The position numbers and the translations under genes were made by a program. Source: Candidatus Udaeobacter sp. (GTDB lineage: Bacteria > Verrucomicrobiota > Verrucomicrobiia > Chthoniobacterales > UBA10450). From it: a stretch of DNA of 39,515 nt. The notes under the pieces were generated by a model. The model had not been told where the DNA came from, did no database searches, and worked only from the letters and a program-made list of their open reading frames with translations. The stretch's first letter is position 1; each line of letters starts with the position of its first letter. This document shows positions 29,818 through 39,515 of this stretch, piece after piece. The stretch spans positions 1 through 39,515 of the forward strand of contig JBEDUS010000200.1 in NCBI GenBank assembly GCA_040414975.1, in the 5' to 3' direction.

Positions 29818-30218
<401 letters not shown>

Positions 30219-30219
<1 letters not shown>

Positions 30220-30941
30220 TGGTACCCGGTGCAGCCTCCGACATTTTGCCGGAGCGGGTGTCGCCTGCATTCATTAAGGTCGCGAGCATCTGTGCGATTT
30301 TGACGGCGCTCTCAACCGTCGCGGTCCATTGGCTGCCTGATCTATGGAGCAACGCGACGACGTTTGAATCGCAAATACAGCTTCGGCACAACGCCATTTA
30401 CATGGGTCGCCTCTGGGTGGTGCTGATCCATTGCGTGCTTGTGGTCATTTCAATGGCCGCAATTCCTATCCTTCTGAGCGGCACGTCGCGAGTGATCGGA
30501 ATATTCGGGTTTGGCAGTTACGTTCTGTTTGCCTTTGTGGAAATGCTCAGGACGTCATTGTTCATCTTCGCGGTGAATCGTGCGTGGCGGACCGGTTATG
30601 AAACGAGTGCCGATGAGATGCAGCGCCGCGCGTTTCGCTCGGCGCTCGACACTTTTGGAGGCGTTAACGACGCGCTCTTCTTTCTTTTTTTCCTGGCGTT
30701 TACAGCCGGCCTTTTCTGTTACGGAATCGCGCTGCTTTCGAATAGCGGAACGGACCGCGGCGTCGCATATTTATTTCTACTTTGGGGCATTCTTAATCTT
30801 CCCGGCTTGATCGGAGCGTTGCTCGCAAACGAGTCTCTTGGTGCCTATTTCGACTGGGTTGGCCGCTATTTTCAACCGATCGCCAGATTATTGATCGGCC
30901 TCTGGCTCTGGAACATCGCTAAGCGACGCTGCGCCACATGA
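30219..30941 (+). CDS. Uncharacterised ~6-TM membrane protein, translationally coupled to glnB
   Basis: The ATG at 30219 overlaps the glnB TGA by 1 nt (TGATG). There are six hydrophobic segments. It is far too short for AmtB and I recognised no family motif. Confidence 0.6.
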
Positions 30942-30982: not shown

Positions 30983-32404
30983 ATGGCTAAAGACAAAACT
31001 CCATCCGACGTCAGCAAAATGATCAAAGAGGGCAACGTGAAGTTGATCGATTTCAAGTTCACGGATTTGCTCGGCACCTGGCAGCATTTCACGACCACGC
31101 TCACCGAGTACAATGAGGAGATCTTCACCGATGGCCTCGGGTTTGACGGATCAAGCATTCGCGGCTGGCGCGTGATCAACGCCTCAGACATGCTCGTCAT
31201 TCCCGATGCGACGACCGCGTGGATCGATGTCTTCAACGCTGAACCGACGCTGAGTTTAATTTGCACCATCGTCGATCCGATCACTCGCCAACCGTACGAT
31301 CGCGACCCGCGCGGTGTTGCCGAAAAAGCGGAGGCTTATCTCAAATCGACCGGCATCGCGGACACCGCGTTCTTTGGGCCCGAGGCGGAGTTTTTCATTT
31401 TCGACGATGTGCGATTTGCGAATACCGGCAACGCCGCGTCATACATGGTCGATAGCGTCGAAGGACATTGGAATAGCGCGCGCGAAGAATTTCCAAATCT
31501 AGGTTACAAGATTCGGCCCAAAGAAGGTTATTTTCCGGTCTCGCCGATGGATTCGTTGCAAGACATTCGCAACGAAATGTGTTTGGAGCTGGAAAACGCA
31601 GGCGTCGCGATCGAGCGCCAGCATCATGAAGTCGCAACCGCTGGCCAGGCGGAGATCGACATCCGGTTCGCGCCTCTCAAACGCATGGGCGACAACATGC
31701 AGTATTACAAATACATCCTGCGCAACGTCGCCAAACGGCATAACAAAACGGTCACGTTCATGCCGAAACCGATCTTCGCCGATAACGGGTCGGGGATGCA
31801 TACGCACATGTCGCTGTGGAATGCCGATAAGCCGCTGTTTGCCGGGAACGGTTACGCAGGCTTGAGTGAGGCCGCGCTCTTTTTCATTGGCGGAATTTTG
31901 AAACACGCGCCGGCGCTCACCTGCCTGACGAACCCGACTACGAATAGCTACAAGCGACTCGTTCCCGGGTTCGAAGCACCGGTCAATCTCGCCTACTCCG
32001 CGCGCAATCGCTCCGCGGCCATTCGAATTCCGACCTATTCGCCGAGTCCGAAAGCAAAGCGCATCGAATTCCGGACGCCGGATGCCGCCGCAAATCCATA
32101 TCTCGCCTTCTCGGCGATGCTTCTAGCCGGTCTCGATGGAATCCAAAACCGCATGGATCCCGGCGATCCTCTCGACAAAAACCTCTACGAACTACCACCC
32201 GAGGAACTCGCACAGGTCGCCAGTGTGCCCGATTCATTGCGGGGGGCAATCGAAGCGCTCCAGGCAGATCATTCCTTCCTGTTACGCGGCGACGTGTTCA
32301 ACGAAGACTTCATCGCCAACTGGATCGACATGAAACAAAAAGAATACGACGCGCTGCGTTTAAGGCCCCACCCCTATGAATTTGCGATGTATTATGATGT
32401 TTGA
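30983..32404 (+). CDS. glnA: Glutamine synthetase, type I
   Basis: 473 aa. [29 protein letters not shown]...[23 protein letters not shown], and the adenylylation-loop motif [10 protein letters not shown]. Confidence 0.95.
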
Positions 32405-32462
32405 TCGTCGCGTGTCGTTGCGAGCGAAGTCGAGAAATCTCTGATTGCCTTCCGCCCTTGGA

Positions 32463-33450
32463 TTAATCCAAAGGGCTCTTCACTCCGATCCCCGGCTTGT
32501 TAAGCACGTTCGTGTAAATCATTGTCGTGGACACGTCTTTGTGACCGAGCAGTTCCTGCACAGTTCGAATGTCGTAACCTTTAGATAGCAAATGCGTCGC
32601 GAATGAGTGCCGTAAACTGTGACAATTGGCGCGCTTCACAATCCCAGCGGCGTCCACAGCTCGTTTGAGCGCGCTTTGCAACACCCCCTCGGCAATATGG
32701 TGCCGCTGTTTCCGGCCGGTGCGCGGATCGATGGAGAGACGAGACGAAGGAAAAACGTATTGCCAGGCCCACTGACGCGCCGCATTAGGAAGCTTGCGCG
32801 CGAGGGCGAATGGAAGATGAACACTGCCGAATCCGTCTTCGAGATCCTGCTCATGTTGTGCTTTGGCTCGCGATAAGTGACGGCGCCGGGGTTCACTTAG
32901 ATTCAACGGCAGCATCGTAACGCGATCCTTTCCGCCTTTTGCATCATGCACAGTGATTTGGGCGAGCTCAAAATCCACGTCTTTTATTCGCAACCGAACG
33001 CATTCCATCAAGCGCAACCCGCTGCCATACAGCAAGCCGGCCATCAGTTTGGGCATGCCATGAAGATGCGCGAAAATTTGTTTCACCTCGCGCCGCGATA
33101 AAACGACCGGCATCTTCGGCGGCTTTTTGGCTCGCTCGACCTTTTCGAGCCAGCCCATCTCATGGTTTGAGCACCTCTTTGTAGAGAAAAAGCAACGCGC
33201 TCAGCGCCTGGTTTTGAGTCGAAGCCGCCACGTTGAGATCGCGTGCAAGATAAGTCAGAAATTCGGCGACTTCCTCTTCGGCCATCTCTCCAGGGTGCCG
33301 TTTGCCGTGATAGATGATGAACCGCTTAATCCAGTCGATATAAGCCTGCTCGGTGCGCATGGAATAATGCTTGCGTCGGATAATGTTCCGCACCTGGTCG
33401 AGCAGTTTTGGTTTGTCCGCGACCGGCCTTCTGGCTACTCTGTCCGACAT
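32463..33450 (-). pseudogene. intI: Integron integrase IntI interrupted by a 1-nt frameshift
   Basis: The N-terminal 96 codons ([49 protein letters not shown]) end at TGA 33162-33160. The rest continues in another frame from ~33161: [34 protein letters not shown], the IntI-specific [45 protein letters not shown] and [16 protein letters not shown]. Confidence 0.85.
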
Positions 33451-33495
33451 GCGAATGAGTTTGTCCTCCCAACTCTCAAACTCAAGCCGGATTAG

Positions 33496-33555
33496 ACCCA
33501 AAAACTGGGTATTTCTCTTGAAATGCCCAAAAATTGGGTCGAATTCTCGTTAGAT
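33496..33555 (+). promoter_or_regulatory. Putative attI: two direct repeats plus core site GTTAGAT
   Basis: ACCCAAAAACTGGGT (33496-33510) and GCCCAAAAATTGGGT (33525-33539) are followed by ...TTCTCGTTAGATG. The core is at 33549-33555. Its context is identical to the R' end of attC 1 (TTCTCGTTAGATG). Confidence 0.55.
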
Positions 33556-33566
33556 GGTGAAGCGCG

Positions 33567-33890
33567 ATGATTATCGCAGCCTGCGTCGGAGCGTTAGCGG
33601 TCCTTGGAATTGCATTACACATGTTTTTCATGCGGAAGCTGCAGCTCCAGTGTCCCGATGAGTGGGAGCGCCTCGGGGCGCCTAATCCTTTTCTGCCGAA
33701 CGACCCTCAAACAAGCTGGCGTCTCACGAAATATGTAATGGGCGGAGCATTCAAGGCACTTCCAGACAAACGAGTAGTGCGACTCGGCCGCATTCTCCGG
33801 GTATTCGAATGGTTGTGGGTCTGCGGTTGGACATTTTACATCCTGCTCGTCGCATTCGTCCTGATTCCATTATGGCTCCGTGGCAAGTAA
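33567..33890 (+). CDS. Cassette 1 ORF: 107-aa membrane protein of unknown function
   Basis: It starts 12 nt after the attI core, and its stop lies 2 nt before the R'' of attC 1. It has an N-terminal TM (IIAACVGALAVLGIALHMFF) and C-terminal hydrophobic helices. Confidence 0.5.
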   Translation: MIIAACVGALAVLGIALHMFFMRKLQLQCPDEWERLGAPNPFLPNDPQTSWRLTKYVMGGAFKALPDKRVVRLGRILRVFEWLWVCGWTFYILLVAFVLIPLWLRGK

Positions 33891-33892
33891 CC

Positions 33893-33988
33893 ACCTAACC
33901 AATCGATGAAGCCAACGTCCCCATTGCGAAACAAATCCAGCGTGTTTGCCACGACACCCTGCCGTGGCTTATCTCTTTCTCGTTAGAT
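33893..33988 (+). repeat. attC site 1 (complete, 96 nt)
   Basis: R''=ACCTAAC (33893-99), L''=GATGAAGC (33905-12), L'=GCTTATCT (33967-74), R'=GTTAGAT (33982-88). R''/R' pair at 6 of 7 positions. L''/L' pair over 7 bp with one bulged G. The central region contains further stems. The architecture parallels the aadA 59-base element. Confidence 0.8.
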
Positions 33989-34418
33989 GCTAGTGCCGCG
34001 CTCGGTCAAGCTCCTGCCGGTCGCACTACTGATTGCTGGGTGTGCAACAAATGAATCTCGCGAGACGATCTTGGTTGACTCCTACACGTACCACGAGATG
34101 AAGACACTGCAGTCCTCGGCATATGAGATTCAGACTTGGGCTTGGTTACGTGGCATCTCCCGAGCAGAAATCCACGCGATTGAGGCGTTCGTAGCGTGAC
34201 ACCGGGAGATACGCAAACCGATTCTCCGCATGATGGCCGTGAAGAATGATCGCGTACAGGTACTCACGGGGAGCGATGAACATCGCGGCGACATTTATAA
34301 TTCCTTTCATGTCGTTAAACGCGATGGAAAGTGGCGCCTCGAAGAATCCCAAATCGAGGACATTCGTGTCACAGAGGATCGTGCCGAGCTTCTTCGGCGT
34401 GGTGGTTCCGGCATCTAA
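33987..34418 (+). pseudogene. Cassette 2: lipoprotein reading frame split by an in-frame TGA (70 + 62 codons plus linker)
   Basis: The ATG overlaps the R' of attC 1. The signal/lipobox is LLPVALLIAGC. TGA at 34197-34199 is followed in the same frame by HREIRKPILRMMAVKNDRVQ...KRDGKWRLEE. The terminal TAA lies inside the R'' of attC 2. Confidence 0.5.
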
Positions 34419-34484
34419 CCAGCCGATGAAGCCAACGCGCCCTTTGCGGTATAAGCTCCGCGTGATTGCCACGTCACCCTGCCG
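34413..34484 (+). repeat. attC copy 2: R''/L'' and central part retained, L'/R' missing
   Basis: ATCTAACCAGCCGATGAAGCCAACG...GTGATTGCCACGTCACCCTGCCG aligns with attC 1 up to 34484 and then diverges. I found no GCTTATCT / GTTRRRY downstream. Confidence 0.6.
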
Positions 34485-34589
34485 GAGGCTGAACCGGCAA
34501 GTAATTCGACAATTGTCGGTTGTGCTTACGATTTCGGCGACTTTTCCTTCCGTAACCGTCTAAATCCGCATCCCATCCGGGGCCGAGCG

Positions 34590-35738
34590 TTAACCATACG
34601 TGAATTCCGGCTTGCTCTGTCCAACCTCGATAATATAACCGTCAGGATCGCGGATGTAGCAGCGCGTCTCGCCGTACTTGTCCTTCGGCTCCGTGATGAA
34701 CTCGGCTCCTCGACTTCTCCATAATTCATAGCACGCTTGAATATCCGCAACGCGGATATTCATAAAGCCGCTGATCTTATCCGGGTCGGCGAGGACGCTG
34801 AGCGTTACCGACGGCTTGTCGGGGGTCGGGCCGCCCCCGACGTTGACAATGAGCCACGTATTCGCGATCTGAATGTACCCAGGCGCGCCTTTGCTGTCGC
34901 CTCTGCTCAGAATGCGACCGCCGAAGACCGTTTCATAGAAGCGAGCCGATCGGTCGATGTCGGCGACGGTGAGAAAATGTGCGACGGTAAACCCGTCCCG
35001 CGGGGGCATCTCGTAGCTCTTCTGTTCGATTTGTACGCTGTTCATTGAAGACTCCAATTCCGATCCAGTCATGAGTTTCAGAAGCGCCTGAGCTGCCGAG
35101 GTCGACGACGCAGGATTCTGGCCAGTAATGAGACGGCCGTCAGTGAAGGAAAAAGGCTGCCAGTTCGCCTTCTTCTCAAACATGGCACCGAGCCGCAGCA
35201 GTTCATCTTCGACCAGGAACGGCACAACGCTCGTGAGCTTCATCTCTTCCTCTTCGCCGTTAGTAAAGCCGGTTACGTGCTTCCCCTTTACCAGAGGTTC
35301 GCCTTTGTAAGTGACATGGCGAAGCACACCAGGCGAATGGCAGACCAGCGCAATTGGCTTGCCGGAGTTGTAAAACGATTCGAGCAGAGCAATGGAAACG
35401 GGGTCTTCGGCAAGATCCCACATCGGACCGTGTCCACCCGGATAGAACACGGTGTCGAAATCTTCTGATTTCACGCTCGAAAGCTTTGCCGTGTTGGCGA
35501 GAGCTTCCTGAGCCGTCTTATCTTTCTTAAAGCGCGTCATGGCCGGCGTTTGATTTTCCGGCAGATCGCTCTTTGGATCTAGCGGTGGCAGCCCGCCTTT
35601 GGGAGATGCCAGTGTTAGTTCGACTCCGGCATCTCTGAAAACAAAGTAGGGCGCTGCAAACTCCTCCAGCCAGAAACCCGTCTTGCGGCCAGTGTTGCCG
35701 AGTTGATCGTGCGAAGTTAATACCATCAGTATTCTCAT
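34590..35738 (-). CDS. Fusion protein: DJ-1/PfpI (class I glutamine amidotransferase-like) domain + VOC/glyoxalase-fold domain
   Basis: The N-terminal ~230 aa (MRILMVLTSHDQLG...TGFWLEEFA.PY..F, nucleophile-elbow ALVCHSPGVL) are DJ-1/PfpI-like. The C-terminal ~130 aa (VAHFLTVADIDRSARFYETVFG...YIRDPDGYIIEVGQ) are VOC-like. It is oriented opposite to the cassettes. Confidence 0.75.
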   Translation of the reverse strand: MRILMVLTSHDQLGNTGRKTGFWLEEFAAPYFVFRDAGVELTLASPKGGLPPLDPKSDLPENQTPAMTRFKKDKTAQEALANTAKLSSVKSEDFDTVFYPGGHGPMWDLAEDPVSIALLESFYNSGKPIALVCHSPGVLRHVTYKGEPLVKGKHVTGFTNGEEEEMKLTSVVPFLVEDELLRLGAMFEKKANWQPFSFTDGRLITGQNPASSTSAAQALLKLMTGSELESSMNSVQIEQKSYEMPPRDGFTVAHFLTVADIDRSARFYETVFGGRILSRGDSKGAPGYIQIANTWLIVNVGGGPTPDKPSVTLSVLADPDKISGFMNIRVADIQACYELWRSRGAEFITEPKDKYGETRCYIRDPDGYIIEVGQSKPEFTYG

Positions 35739-35965
35739 ATTCTATCTCCTTCTTTTCTCGACTTTCATTGGTTTAGCTGACTTTCAATAATGCCCGCCAC
35801 ATTGTGTCCTAGCACACGGGGATACTGAATCATTGCGCTCAAAAAAGCAGATTGTCCGTTTGCACCGCTTCCACGTAAGTGCCGAACGACTCAGGCGGCG
35901 CCGGGAGCTTGACGCCAGCTCTTTCAACCGCTGCTCGGCGCTGGCCGACTGAGAGTCTTCGCAGG

Positions 35966-36689
35966 TTACCATTTGCCCACGTGCGCACCGCCGTCCACGT
36001 GCAGCACCTCCCCGGTTACCTGATGAGCTTCCGTGAGATAAACAATCGCATCCACGATGTCTTTCACATCGGAAATCTGTCCCATCGGTTGGAGCGTCTT
36101 AAGAAAATCTTTCGAGTCATTCTTGTGCATAGGCGTATCGACCTCGCCCGGCGCGACCGCGTTCACGCGTATGCCTTGTTTCGCGTATTCCATTGCCAGG
36201 CTACGAGTGGCGGCCTCAAGGCCGCCTTTTGTGATCATCGCAACGGCAACGTTTATTCCGGCGATCGGGTGATCCACCAACGTCGACGTAATGTTGATGA
36301 TGCTTCCGCCGGTCTTCTGAGCCAACATCTGCTTGATCGCGAGCTGGGTCATGAAGAAAAAGCCTTCGATGTTCACGGAAGAGAGAGACCGCAGATCGTC
36401 GAGTGTGTAATCGGTGAAGTGCTTCGAGAAGAATATACCGGCGTTGTTCACGAGCGCGTCGATCCGGCCGAATCGCGACACGGCACTGTTCACGATCTTT
36501 GGGGCCGTGTTCGGGTCACTGATGTCACCGTCGACCAATGCAAAGATTCGGAGACGCCGGGAACGGGTTTGTTTTGGTAATGTTTCGCGAGTTCGCAACT
36601 ACCGTATAACCACGTTTCAAAAACGCTTCCACGGTTGCCACGCCGATCGCCTGTGAGGCGCCGGTAACGATGGCGTTTTTCGTATTCAT
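35966..36689 (-). pseudogene. Short-chain dehydrogenase/reductase (SDR) with a 1-nt frameshift
   Basis: ATG 36689 opens MNTKNAIVTGASQAIGVATVEAFLKRGYTVVANSRN...SPNL, the TGxxxGIG-type Rossmann N-terminus, which hits a stop at 36527-36525. The remainder (ALVDGDISDP...NNAG...Y..TKGGL..., track ORF 35966-36598) is in another frame. The switch maps to the A-run at 36542-36544. Confidence 0.75.
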
Positions 36690-36698
36690 TTATGCTCT

Positions 36699-36906
36699 CT
36701 ATATATAAGGACCATTCTCTTTATTTGGCCACCGCGTCGCCACCACCCGGTCGGCGGAGATCGGCGATTGCCTCTTCCGGAACGTTGACGTGGAAGGGGC
36801 GGATTGCCTTGTCGTCGGCAGCAGCGGCCCGCAACCCCCTGCGGACTAATTGGAGCGGCGAGCAGGAAAAACAGGAAACTTTAAGCAAACAGGCTTTTAT
36901 TTTCAT
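36699..36906 (-). pseudogene. Remnant of an epoxide hydrolase N-terminal (EHN) region
   Basis: IRPFHVNVPEEAIADLRR is followed, after a frame change, by RVVATRWPNKE. This matches the EHN signature (IRPF.V.VP...L.DLR.RL..TRWP..E). The reading then stops after ~7 more codons, directly abutting the SDR start. Confidence 0.4.
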
Positions 36907-37156
36907 AGGATTCTGCTTGCCGCGTCCGAGAGAACTCACCCACCTCTTTCACGATCCCCTTCGGCACTCCCTCGGATGCGAGAGCCTCACGCCGGCGCTC
37001 AATGTATCGCTCGGCGCAGAAGCATCGGAGGTGCGCGAAAAACCAATTTGCGCGTCCGTTCTTGTATTACAAACGGACATGATGGGTGATTAATGTTCTC
37101 TCTCTTGCGGTAAACTCCGAAAACTCCTGCCGCGGATGCACGATGCTGGCGGGAAT

Positions 37157-37249
37157 CTTCAGACTATCGAAGCCAGCGGCCCCATTGTGGAGGAGCTTCA
37201 ATGTGATTGCCACGACACCCTGCCGTGGCTTATCTCTTTCTCGTTAGGC
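37157..37249 (+). repeat. attC copy 3: degenerate R'' and shortened L'', intact L'/R'
   Basis: The 3' 47 nt (TGATTGCCACGACACCCTGCCGTGGCTTATCTCTTTCTCGTTAGGC) are near-identical to attC 1, and R'=GTTAGGC (37243-49). The 5' end reads CTTCAGA-CTATC-GA---AGCC instead of RYYYAAC-N5-GATGAAGC. Confidence 0.65.
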
Positions 37250-37293
37250 TGCCCCGGGCGTCACCCTGGCCAACCCGCTTGGATCCAATACTC

Positions 37294-37863
37294 ATGACCA
37301 AAATCGACATTGCGGCCTCAGACCAGCATTTCGAGCAGATCCTCACTCTCCAGCGACGCTATCACACCCGATCCCTCTCAGCCGAGGCACAGGCGCAGGA
37401 GGGCTTCGTCTTCGCGCAGCATTCTGTACCCCTGCTGCGCCGCATGGCCGCCGAACTACCACAAGCGGTCGCACTGGTAGACAACGTCGTCGTTGGTTAC
37501 TGCCTTTCCCTACCGCTGTCCCTACGCAACGAACTCCCGAGCCTCGCACCCATGTTCGACCAGTTCAGCCGTTGCGTATACCGGGGGCGCCCACTCTCCG
37601 ATCTCAGGTTCTTCGTAGGTGGCCAGGTTTGCGTTGATAGGGCACATCGGGGGCGGAGGCTTCTGGCCCGTCTCTACGACCGCGTCCGGGAATCCCTGCA
37701 TACCGAGTACGAACTGTGCGTCACGGAGATCGCCACTCGAAACCAGGTCTCGGTTCGAGCTCACAAAAAGATGGGTTTCGAGGTGATTTCCACGTACTCA
37801 GACGACCGCGAGGAATGGGTCATAGTCACTTGGGATCTTTCTCGACCCGCGATAATCGCCTGA
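37294..37863 (+). CDS. GNAT family N-acetyltransferase (cassette-orientation ORF after attC 3)
   Basis: The ATG at 37294 lies 45 nt after R'. VGGQVCVDRAHRGRRLLARLY is the acetyl-CoA-binding R/Q-x-x-G-x-G/A-type motif, and ATRNQVSVRAHKKMGFEV is the C-terminal motif. Confidence 0.75.
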   Translation: MTKIDIAASDQHFEQILTLQRRYHTRSLSAEAQAQEGFVFAQHSVPLLRRMAAELPQAVALVDNVVVGYCLSLPLSLRNELPSLAPMFDQFSRCVYRGRPLSDLRFFVGGQVCVDRAHRGRRLLARLYDRVRESLHTEYELCVTEIATRNQVSVRAHKKMGFEVISTYSDDREEWVIVTWDLSRPAIIA

Positions 37864-38796
37864 ATAATCATTAGGTGCATCCTCATGCGGAGAGTTTCGC
37901 AAAGGTCTTCACACGCGCACGAGGATCCCGAAGACTTTGATCACCGCGACCCCGCTGGCGATCGGAATAATTGGCGGTGGTCGTGCTGCTGCTTGCTTCT
38001 CCCAAAGTGACCGGAGCGCGAGAAGCATGTTCTACCTCCTCTCTTTGAGAATTGCCGCAAATCCGACCGGATTTCGGCGATAAGGCGGTCCAGAATCTTT
38101 CTGAACCAGCGCGAGCAATTTTCTCGCGTCTTCAGAATCGGCGGCACGCGCTTGTCGAATGTCTTTCGCGGTTGCACGATCAATAGTTACTTCGACGTTG
38201 CCGCAATCTTCGGACTTATCGATTGTCCGTGTGGACAGGAAGTGAAATGGCCGTCTGGGCGGACGACAACTTTCTCAACACCGGCGGCAGGATACAATCC
38301 GGGGCGATGGTGCTGGTTTCTTGCGGGAGTTACCCCGGCGGGTCGCCGCGTCGCGACGGCGCTTGGCCCACCAGCCCGATCTTGTGCGTCGCGATCTGCT
38401 TCTGTTTCATGACGCCGCCAAGTCACGATAGAGCGGTGCTGGACTTTTGCGAGCCAATCTGTTGTGCGGCATCCGGAAAAGCGCGTGGCGATGCGGAAAG
38501 CTGTTCGGGAGAAGCGACTGCGCGGGGCCCCACGGTGCGCAGAGGCGAATTATGCAGTTTGGGGATCGTGCTTATTTAAACTGCATCACTTTCGGGATGT
38601 GAGCCGTCGCGACCCGAAAATAGTCGTGATCGGCGCGCCTACCGGCATCTCATTCGATCTGCCTAAGCACCACCGATATTTGATGTTTCTCGTGCGAGAA
38701 GCGGGCGATCGGTTCGCTCCTTTCGCTGGTCAAACGGATGTGGAACTTGTCTCAGTGCGGGAGCTAGTTGGCACGTCAGTGGATTAACGTGATTTC

Positions 38797-38859
38797 ATCT
38801 AACCATTCGATGAAGCCAATGGCCCCTCAGCGTTTCGCGGTGAAGGCGGTTGCTGCCGC
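38797..38859 (+). repeat. attC copy 4: 5' half only (R''=ATCTAAC, L''=GATGAAGC), embedded in a coding frame
   Basis: ATCTAACCATTCGATGAAGCCAATGGCCCCTCAGCG aligns with the 5' halves of attC 1 and 2. I found no L'/R' partner within 200 nt. Confidence 0.5.
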
Positions 38860-39190
38860 TACTGCGCTGATCCTGGCGATGACTGACCGCGCTCTTCCGC
38901 TCCGCTTCCTGATTGAGGAGCAGCGGGCGAAGATCGAGCCCGCCGTCAAAAAGTTCCAGCAGGAATGCAGCGGCCACACCGACAGCCAAGCGTGCAAGGA
39001 AAAGCGCGACGCGCTGGTGGAGGCGCTCGACGACTTCCTCAGCTTGGTGCAGAACGGGCTCAAGGTCATTGACGCCCACGCCGGTGACGCGAGTGACGCC
39101 GATTACCAGAAGAAAATAGAGGCGCTCCGGGCACGAGCGCAGCAGCATCTCCAGTGGGGGCAAGAGCAGCGGAAGGCGCTAGGGCAATGA
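38810..39190 (+). CDS. 126-aa secreted, predicted all-helical protein of unknown function
   Basis: The ATG at 38810 lies inside the L'' box. MKPMAPQRFAVKAVAAATALILAM looks like a signal peptide. The remainder is charged and helical (EEQRAKIEPAVKKFQQE...KKIEALRARAQQHLQWGQEQRKALGQ). Confidence 0.5.
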   Translation: MKPMAPQRFAVKAVAAATALILAMTDRALPLRFLIEEQRAKIEPAVKKFQQECSGHTDSQACKEKRDALVEALDDFLSLVQNGLKVIDAHAGDASDADYQKKIEALRARAQQHLQWGQEQRKALGQ

Positions 39191-39515
39191 CTAGGGCCCA
39201 TCGTATCGGCTGAGCGTGGTAGCGCCTTCCTCACGATACTGATGATCGCACTTTGGGAAAAACGTTTTGCGTAACCAAAGTTCAATCTTGTCGCGGACTG
39301 CGGGCATCAGTCTTATTCAATCACAACGCGCCGGGATCGTGAAGGGCAATCGTGACCCCGCAATTAACGGTCGATGGGCGCGTTATCGACTCGCGGTGCG
39401 CCCTGTTGCTCATCGCGAAAGTTATGGCGATCTCTGACTTCGGACAGTCTGGTCGGGCGTGTTGTTTGCGCGGTGCATGACGTGAGAATTCCCAGCGCCA
39501 TAATCGCGCCCCCGA

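Follow-up and report, generated by a model that had tools for sequence, protein, structure and literature searches.

The DNA examined here is a 39,515-bp contig (JBEDUS010000200.1) of the soil bacterium Candidatus Udaeobacter (Verrucomicrobiota, Chthoniobacterales). It spans an entire contig of a metagenome assembly and is called the window below. Between the glutamine synthetase gene glnA and a variable region it carries a locus which we read, with a probability of about 0.8, as a sedentary chromosomal integron caught in decay. The predicted integrase gene intI, the attachment site attI and the recombination sites attC are all present and, judged by comparison with related loci (denoted by L and a number), belong to one Udaeobacter-wide integron family. 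The integrase IntI is a tyrosine recombinase that recombines the folded bottom-strand hairpin of an attC site with a double-stranded attI. Cassettes are inserted between the G and the TT of the attI core, and IntI also excises them by recombination of attC with attC. Candidatus Udaeobacter is among the most abundant bacterial lineages of soil.

Chromosomal Position and Host

The gene glnA (30983..32404, plus strand) is the conserved chromosomal neighbour of intI, to which it is convergent. In two other genomes, represented by loci L023 and L051, the gene order DNA polymerase III alpha, PII, glnA, intI is the same as in the window, where the PII gene (glnB, 29881-30219) lies upstream of glnA. 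The GlnA proteins of these syntenic intI-carrying loci are 88.8% (L023) and 97.7% (L051) identical to that of the window. The DNA homology of both loci to the window ceases at 33556, the end of the GTTAGAT core of attI, and neither has a cassette in common with it. An attI site is recognised by just this pattern, a conserved platform to one side of the position and lineage-specific cassettes to the other, and the pattern also supports the term sedentary for the glnA anchor. The original prediction, made from the letters of the window alone, had placed a sedentary chromosomal integron directly downstream of glnA; its presence at the same position in two other genomes, with different cassettes, agrees with this.

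When the DNA downstream of intI was clustered, five or more chromosomal anchor sites were seen to recur in the clade, and several related metagenome-assembled genomes (MAGs) carry two to three intI genes each, at several conserved sites. The Verrucomicrobiota-like soil host suspected from the sequence was also borne out: when species-representative genomes were scanned with the repaired IntI described below, the matches came from Udaeobacter and other Chthoniobacterales MAGs at 79-93% identity.

Integrase Gene

Sequence similarity identifies the minus-strand gene 32463-33450 as coding for an integron integrase of the IntI type. Its C-terminal catalytic part (32463..33158, 231 codons, frame B) alone scored 342.8 bits against TIGR02249 "integron integrase" (NCBIfam, curated cutoff 265 bits) over model positions 83-313, and it also matched PF00589. 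The N-terminal SAM-like part (33160..33450, frame A) matched TIGR02249 positions 1-80 and PF13495; its open reading frame (ORF) is open over 33160-33501 and ends at a TGA at 33160-33162. The catalytic residues R, HxxR, H and Y (in TTMIYTNV) can be read off the translation of the C-terminal part, where the IntI-specific insertion is found too. Residues 17-327 of the repaired protein aligned with the crystal structure of VchIntIA from Vibrio cholerae (PDB 2A3V, E 1.7e-89), and this alignment takes in the stretch which the original prediction had named as the IntI-specific insertion. The class assigned there is upheld by TIGR02249 and 2A3V, but the gene is not one ORF, since a +1 insertion divides it between two frames.

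One extra base within 33163-33168 shifts the frame and leads to the TGA at 33160-33162. In a DNA alignment more than 30 related intI genes have CTCAAGCATGAG, one base fewer than the CTCAAACCATGAG of the window; the unshifted form of 33163-33168 would read CTCAAACATGAG. Removal of one base gives a protein of 328 aa, the same length as its homologues. This repaired IntI has more than 8000 homologues in the databases, the best of which (328 aa, 90% identical) carry the JGI name integron integrase. Its closest intact relative, at 93.9% identity, belongs to locus L096 and sits at another site.

An uninterrupted intI reading frame is absent from the window, and the same is true of the other copies at this anchor: all three glnA-linked genes are frameshifted, at codons ~95 (window), ~123 (L051) and ~255 (L023). 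Elsewhere in the clade intI is split in L064, L075 and L077 and interrupted by a 289-nt insert in L095. This insert (L095:606-894) codes for a small GIY-YIG-like protein (MPRYCYVYVLRS...) and may be a small mobile element targeting intI; the L095 gene is 94.7% identical in DNA to the window intI over its first 566 nt.

Attachment Site attI

The predicted attI (33482..33555, plus strand) lies next to intI and is divergent from it. It consists of a conserved block, CAAGCCGGATTAG, a pair of direct repeats (ACCCAAAAACTGGGT, 33496-33510; GCCCAAAAATTGGGT, 33526-33540) and a core, GTTAGAT (33549-33555), which is of the GTTRRRY form and marks the start of the cassettes. When 12 integrons located at different anchor sites were aligned, the block CAAGCCGGATTAGACCCAAAAAnTGGGTATTTCTCTTGAAATGCCCAAAAATTGGGTCGAATTCTCGTTAG proved strongly conserved, and similarity among the aligned regions vanishes right after GTTAG. 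The two 15-nt repeats and the core had been proposed as attI beforehand; we find them conserved in related integrons, with synteny ending at the core.

The attC Family

A motif scan on the cassette sides of loci of the Udaeobacter clade gave 85 paired attC sites, of which 82 were aligned, none of them from the window. The selection motif fixed parts of the R and L boxes in this set; the inner stem was not fixed and covaries strongly. In the RNAalifold structure of the 82 sites an R''/R' helix is followed by a spacer, then by an L''/L' helix containing one unpaired base and, past a second unpaired base, by a further stem. On this structure 94.8% of the cells pair, against 20-45% in slid controls. 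Thirteen of the 22 pairs changed on both sides, 301 cells carry compensatory changes, and the observed covariation was reached by no shuffle. Single-copy minimum-free-energy folding was statistically uninformative (z-scores -1.3 to +0.2), so the covariance model and the covariation counts were used instead. Rfam holds no attC family, and an Rfam scan of 32300-39515 gave just two sub-threshold chance matches.

The covariance model R1, built without sequences from the window, was run on both strands with filters off. It placed a site at 33893-33988 with 63.3 bits (E 5e-14) and another at 37155-37249 with 23.1 bits (E 5e-4); no other site below E 1 was found on either strand of the 39.5 kb. On 444 kb of related loci R1 found 105 sites, all of them upstream of intI and on the opposite strand. 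The main subtypes of the clade measure ~123 nt and 96 nt, and every copy in the window is of the 96-nt subtype, whose members in other genomes score 53-71 bits. In related arrays the density is 5-13 or more attC sites per 10 kb, and two or more subtypes occur.

Between genomes the 96-nt subtype hardly varies (window 33893-33988; L010, L013, L020, L022, L023, L075, L080, L086), and the stems of the ~123-nt subtype covary freely. The invariant central part of the 96-nt sites, TTGCCACGACACCCTGCCGTGGCTTATC, can form a local hairpin of its own. The sequence just past R' is also alike in several copies.

The Four attC Copies of the Window

The state of each copy was established from an alignment with nine 96-nt sites and from BLAST breakpoints. 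The first, attC1 (33893..33988, plus strand), is complete, with R'' ACCTAAC, L'' GATGAAGCC, L' GGCTTATC, R' GTTAGAT and unpaired bases at 33908 and 33915. When folded, its bottom strand shows the R box, the spacer and an L box with a bulge. By fold and model score it is a bona fide attC, as had been predicted for this 96-nt element from its R''-L''...L'-R' order and the bulged base.

The three other copies, all on the plus strand, are partial. In attC2 (34413-34484) positions 1-72 are kept, from R'' to ...CCCTGCCG, and L' and R' are missing; no divergent R' was found further downstream, where GTTGTGC and GTTAACC neither fit GTTRRRY nor pair with R''. The remnant attC3 (37169..37249) keeps positions 16-96, from GAAGCC on, with an intact R' GTTAGGC (37243-37249). 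Its R'' and half of its L'' are replaced, its 23.1 bits include broken R-box pairs, and its homology to the nine other 96-nt sites begins at 37169. Of attC4 (38797..38832) a fragment of ~36 nt is left, comprising R'' ATCTAAC, L'' GATGAAGCC and a few bases; it runs into the ORF 38810-39190, which starts at an ATG within L''. The copies at 34413 and 38797 were not detected as sites by R1.

In ungapped register the four window copies are 61-85% identical to the reference copy. The three additional copies announced in the original prediction (34413, 37157, 38797) are correct as members of the 96-nt subtype, but all are partial and two escape the model. A long array of homogeneous attC sites, as expected of a sedentary chromosomal integron, is not seen here: the window has one intact site, there is no series of consecutive cassettes each with a complete attC, and the related arrays are mixtures of subtypes.

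Cassettes

Cassette 1 (33550..33982, 433 bp, plus strand) extends from the attI core to the R' of attC1. Its ORF (33567-33890, plus strand) codes for a predicted membrane protein of 107 aa, which has no Pfam match. Cassette 2 (33983..34484, plus strand) consists of a lipoprotein gene (33987-34418) and the attC2 remnant. The ORF list gives this gene as two ORFs of the same frame, with a TGA between them at 34197-34199. Its homologues, 141-143 aa long and up to 92% identical, span the TGA, and the closest have Arg there, which points to a nonsense mutation from CGA to TGA and makes the gene a probable pseudogene.

The DNA of cassette 2 is 83% identical to a cassette in the rpsD-linked arrays L086-L089, where it is flanked by complete attC sites (109.9 and 63.4 bits). 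The recurrence of gene and attC together in other arrays shows, at the level of array comparison, that this is a mobile cassette. The homology to L086 ends at 34484, 24 nt before the end of the L086 attC, and by this comparison attC2 of the window has lost its last 24 nt.

A cassette-like segment (37250..38796, plus strand) follows attC3. It begins with a weakly supported GNAT acetyltransferase ORF (37294-37863, plus strand; PF00583, 21.8 bits against a cutoff of 20.7) and continues for ~930 bp (37864-38796) in which the ORFs have no Pfam match and no gene is recognisable. The ORF into which attC4 runs (38810-39190, plus strand) codes for 126 aa of no Pfam family.

Cassettes 1 and 2, like the GNAT ORF, run in one direction and each begin shortly past a GTTRRRY sequence, and for them the description as short cassette-like ORFs of one orientation is apt; it does not suit the two genes at 34590-36689, which are encoded on the other strand and do not resemble cassettes. 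The earlier view of such arrays as reservoirs of novel functions applies to the window in a reduced sense, since this copy is small and eroding, with cassette content that is mostly unannotatable.

Non-Cassette DNA Between the Broken attC Sites

Between attC2 and attC3 lies a non-cassette block of ~2.7 kb (34485..37168, minus strand). By Pfam it holds a DJ-1/PfpI-glyoxalase fusion gene (34590-35738, minus strand) and, by Pfam and the ORF list, an SDR pseudogene in two frames (35966-36598 and 36525-36689, minus strand). The rest of it, 36690-37168, contains small ORFs with no Pfam match and no recognisable gene. The DJ-1/PfpI-glyoxalase protein has thousands of homologues at 87-98% identity, some of them named Candidatus Udaeobacter by NCBI. 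Its gene was seen in five other contexts (L090-L094), none of which has attC sites. The L094 strain is 96.7% identical to the window over 36137-34542 only and diverges at 34542; the 57 nt beyond, 34485-34541, match nothing.

By these homologies the block is ordinary Udaeobacter DNA that abuts a truncated attC at each side. The attC2 remnant (1-72) and the attC3 remnant (16-96) overlap in attC coordinates, which indicates two different sites, each damaged. We read the placement of the block as an illegitimate rearrangement of an array that is no longer maintained. Inversion of 34485-37168 was considered and rejected, as on inspection the junction sequences are unlike reverse-complemented attC ends.

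The DJ-1/glyoxalase gene is widespread in Udaeobacter, with thousands of soil-metagenome sequences, and its neighbourhood is flexible: the neighbours differ between L090, L091/L092 and L093, and L094 has the SDR neighbour of the window. An Rfam match to nhaA-I RNA (34783-34839, plus strand) reaches 27.4 bits, below the gathering score of 37; it falls within the coding region of this gene and is most likely due to chance.

Decay, Sequence Error and Other Explanations

If the locus is in decay, then we can ask: How much of the damage could come from the assembly rather than from the genome? Several observations weigh against our reading of the locus. The contig is metagenome-assembled, and one added base in a CC/AAA context may have come from the assembly; no other metagenome contig was found to carry the exact frameshift allele. 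In the repaired IntI of 328 aa no catalytic residue is missing, and its identity to intact homologues is 90-94%; the frameshift, if real, is recent. The contig ends 325 bp past the last ORF, and intact cassettes may therefore lie beyond it. A scan of 33000-34000 with the sigma-70 consensus, which may not fit Verrucomicrobiota, found no Pc or PintI promoter. No second intI of the window's own genome was seen, and action in trans is taken from other genomes. The single added base, its absence from other contigs and the sound repaired IntI, together with the origin of several frameshifted intI genes (L023, L064, L075) from long-read MAGs, would suit a fully functional integron in which the intI and SDR frameshifts and the TGA of cassette 2 are errors of sequencing or assembly. 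We consider this unlikely. Within 6.7 kb three genes are disrupted (intI, cassette 2, SDR). For the adjoining 31 kb, a non-systematic inspection of the ORF list and part of the Pfam results turned up no split or frameshift in the large ORFs, among them that of the 1181-aa polymerase. The lesions are also mixed in kind. That of cassette 2 is a probable base substitution, CGA to TGA, not an indel; truncated attC sites and an inserted block are beyond base-calling error; and the intI of L051, from a different MAG assembly, is frameshifted as well. Even with intI repaired there would be one intact attC only. A programmed frameshift, in which a +1 ribosomal slip at AAA-C regulates integrase synthesis, is highly improbable. 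If tRNA-Lys slipped from AAA to AAC, with CAT GAG ATG read next, LKHEMGW would indeed be restored, in line with the consensus LKHE(I/M)GW, but the extra base occurs in none of more than 30 relatives, there is neither a stimulatory element nor a stop in the A site after the slip codon, and the other disrupted intI copies are broken at unrelated positions.

Two further explanations concern the array itself. The block 34485-37168 could be an assembly chimera, the true array passing from attC2 straight to attC3 or through other cassettes. Repeated attC sites are classic points for metagenome assemblers to break and join, both junctions fall inside attC copies, and the stretch 34485-34541 is without any match. 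Against this, the DNA that natively flanks the DJ-1 gene (L090-L094) has no attC sequence to seed a false join, the overlap of the two remnants means that they are not one site split by a join, and the GC content is even over the junctions. We therefore regard a chimera as quite unlikely, and illegitimate rearrangement of a decaying array remains our reading of the block. The 96-nt repeat might also have nothing to do with the integrase and be a generic REP-type element spread through the genome, a view to which the long identical stretches in the four copies and the unusual conservation of its central part between genomes would lend themselves. The distribution decides otherwise, as the original prediction had expected: no copy lies elsewhere in the window, on either strand; all 105 sites of the related loci stand in arrays upstream of intI, in a single orientation; and their pairing is backed by covariation. 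A REP-type origin can be dismissed as extremely improbable.

Other Features of the Contig

No tRNA gene was found in the window, and exact-product look-ups found GlnA and the 231-aa IntI fragment on no other contig. Between glnB and glnA lies an ORF for a 241-aa multi-pass membrane protein of no Pfam family (30216-30941, plus strand). It overlaps the stop codon of the PII gene, is present in L051 (80% identity) and was undetected in L023.

A 12-nt R''-like motif, ATCTAACCAGGC, stands at 17258-17269, right after the stop codon of a PG_binding_1 ORF (16779-17258). It adjoins jag (17389-17874) of the group jag-yidC-yidD-rnpA, an anchor at which L004 has intI. With a model score of 9.1 bits (E 1.7) it could be the relic of a second integron or a product of chance; homology lent an attC relic beside jag no support.

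Comparison with Known Integrons

The locus resembles the superintegron of V. cholerae in several respects. Its IntI has the IntI-specific extra domain and can be aligned end to end with VchIntIA (2A3V), attI is divergent from intI and has a GTTRRRY core, and attC has the R''-L''/L'-R' arrangement with two extrahelical positions. The cassettes are short, lie on the same strand and are mostly unannotatable, and the chromosomal position is fixed within the lineage. However, the superintegron has ~180 attC sites, whereas the window shows one intact attC and a frameshifted intI. In related Udaeobacter arrays two or more attC subtypes (~123 and 96 nt) occur together instead of one homogeneous type, and, unlike V. 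cholerae, these relatives hold several integrons per genome at different conserved sites.

In Xanthomonas, chromosomal integrons lie by ilvD, with intI inactivated in many strains and the arrays fixed (PMC8618304). The glnA-linked integron likewise stands beside a housekeeping gene, and three of its three copies have a broken intI; the phylum and the anchor gene are different. At the glnA anchor of Udaeobacter the lesions are independent single frameshifts, and the array is eroded as well, through truncated attC sites and inserted non-cassette DNA.

Clusters of attC sites without an integrase are called CALINs (Cury et al. 2016, PMC4889954). The distal region 37169-38832 is similar to these, being composed of attC remnants and a cassette which non-cassette DNA cuts off from intI. 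Unlike a CALIN, the window still has an intI pseudogene and attI next to each other, and the distal remnants, with one weak 23-bit match, are below the definition of two detectable attC sites. The rpsD-linked arrays L086-L089 (e.g., L086:2675-9562) have at least 10 attC sites, no intI and, after rpsD, an attI-like remnant ...CCGAATTCTCGTTAGGC. Locus L005 has an intact intI at the same rpsD anchor, and L086-L089 are CALINs left behind when the integrase gene was lost.

Integrons have been recorded in Verrucomicrobiota before (PMC4889954, PMC8618304); genomes with more than one integron, intI pseudogenes close to attC clusters, and CALINs have likewise been described (PMC4889954). The kind of element is thus not new, and the value of the locus is descriptive. 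In the literature searched we found no paper connecting Udaeobacter with integrons.

Possible Activity and Meaning of the Locus

The window copy would no longer be able to make its own integrase. New cassettes might still enter at attI, with the G/TT junction of the core 33549-33555 as the insertion point, and at most cassette 1 would still be movable, by recombination of attI with attC1. Either event would need IntI supplied in trans from paralogous integrons, such as those present in related genomes. The rest of the array would be fixed in place, wearing away through point mutations and illegitimate rearrangements.

What the locus offers is a record of an integron family from a soil genus that is uncultured and abundant worldwide, together with a covariation-backed consensus for attI and attC. 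It is also an example of the death of a chromosomal integron, with independent intI frameshifts at one anchor, truncated attC sites, nonsense mutation of cassettes and intrusion of ordinary DNA. An array so small and partly pseudogenised is a poor source of new functions, and the intact arrays of its relatives are better targets.

The present data suggest, and do not establish, a wider arrangement, which we put forward tentatively and hold to be possible rather than probable. Udaeobacter may have a multi-locus integron system, each genome holding several integrons at conserved housekeeping anchors (glnA, rpsD, jag-yidC and other sites), with one IntI family (80-94% identical), one attC family and a shared pool of cassettes on which the surviving paralogues act in trans. 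If this were true, loci like glnA would repeatedly lose their integrase and yet stay in the pool, and the window would be one snapshot of this turnover.

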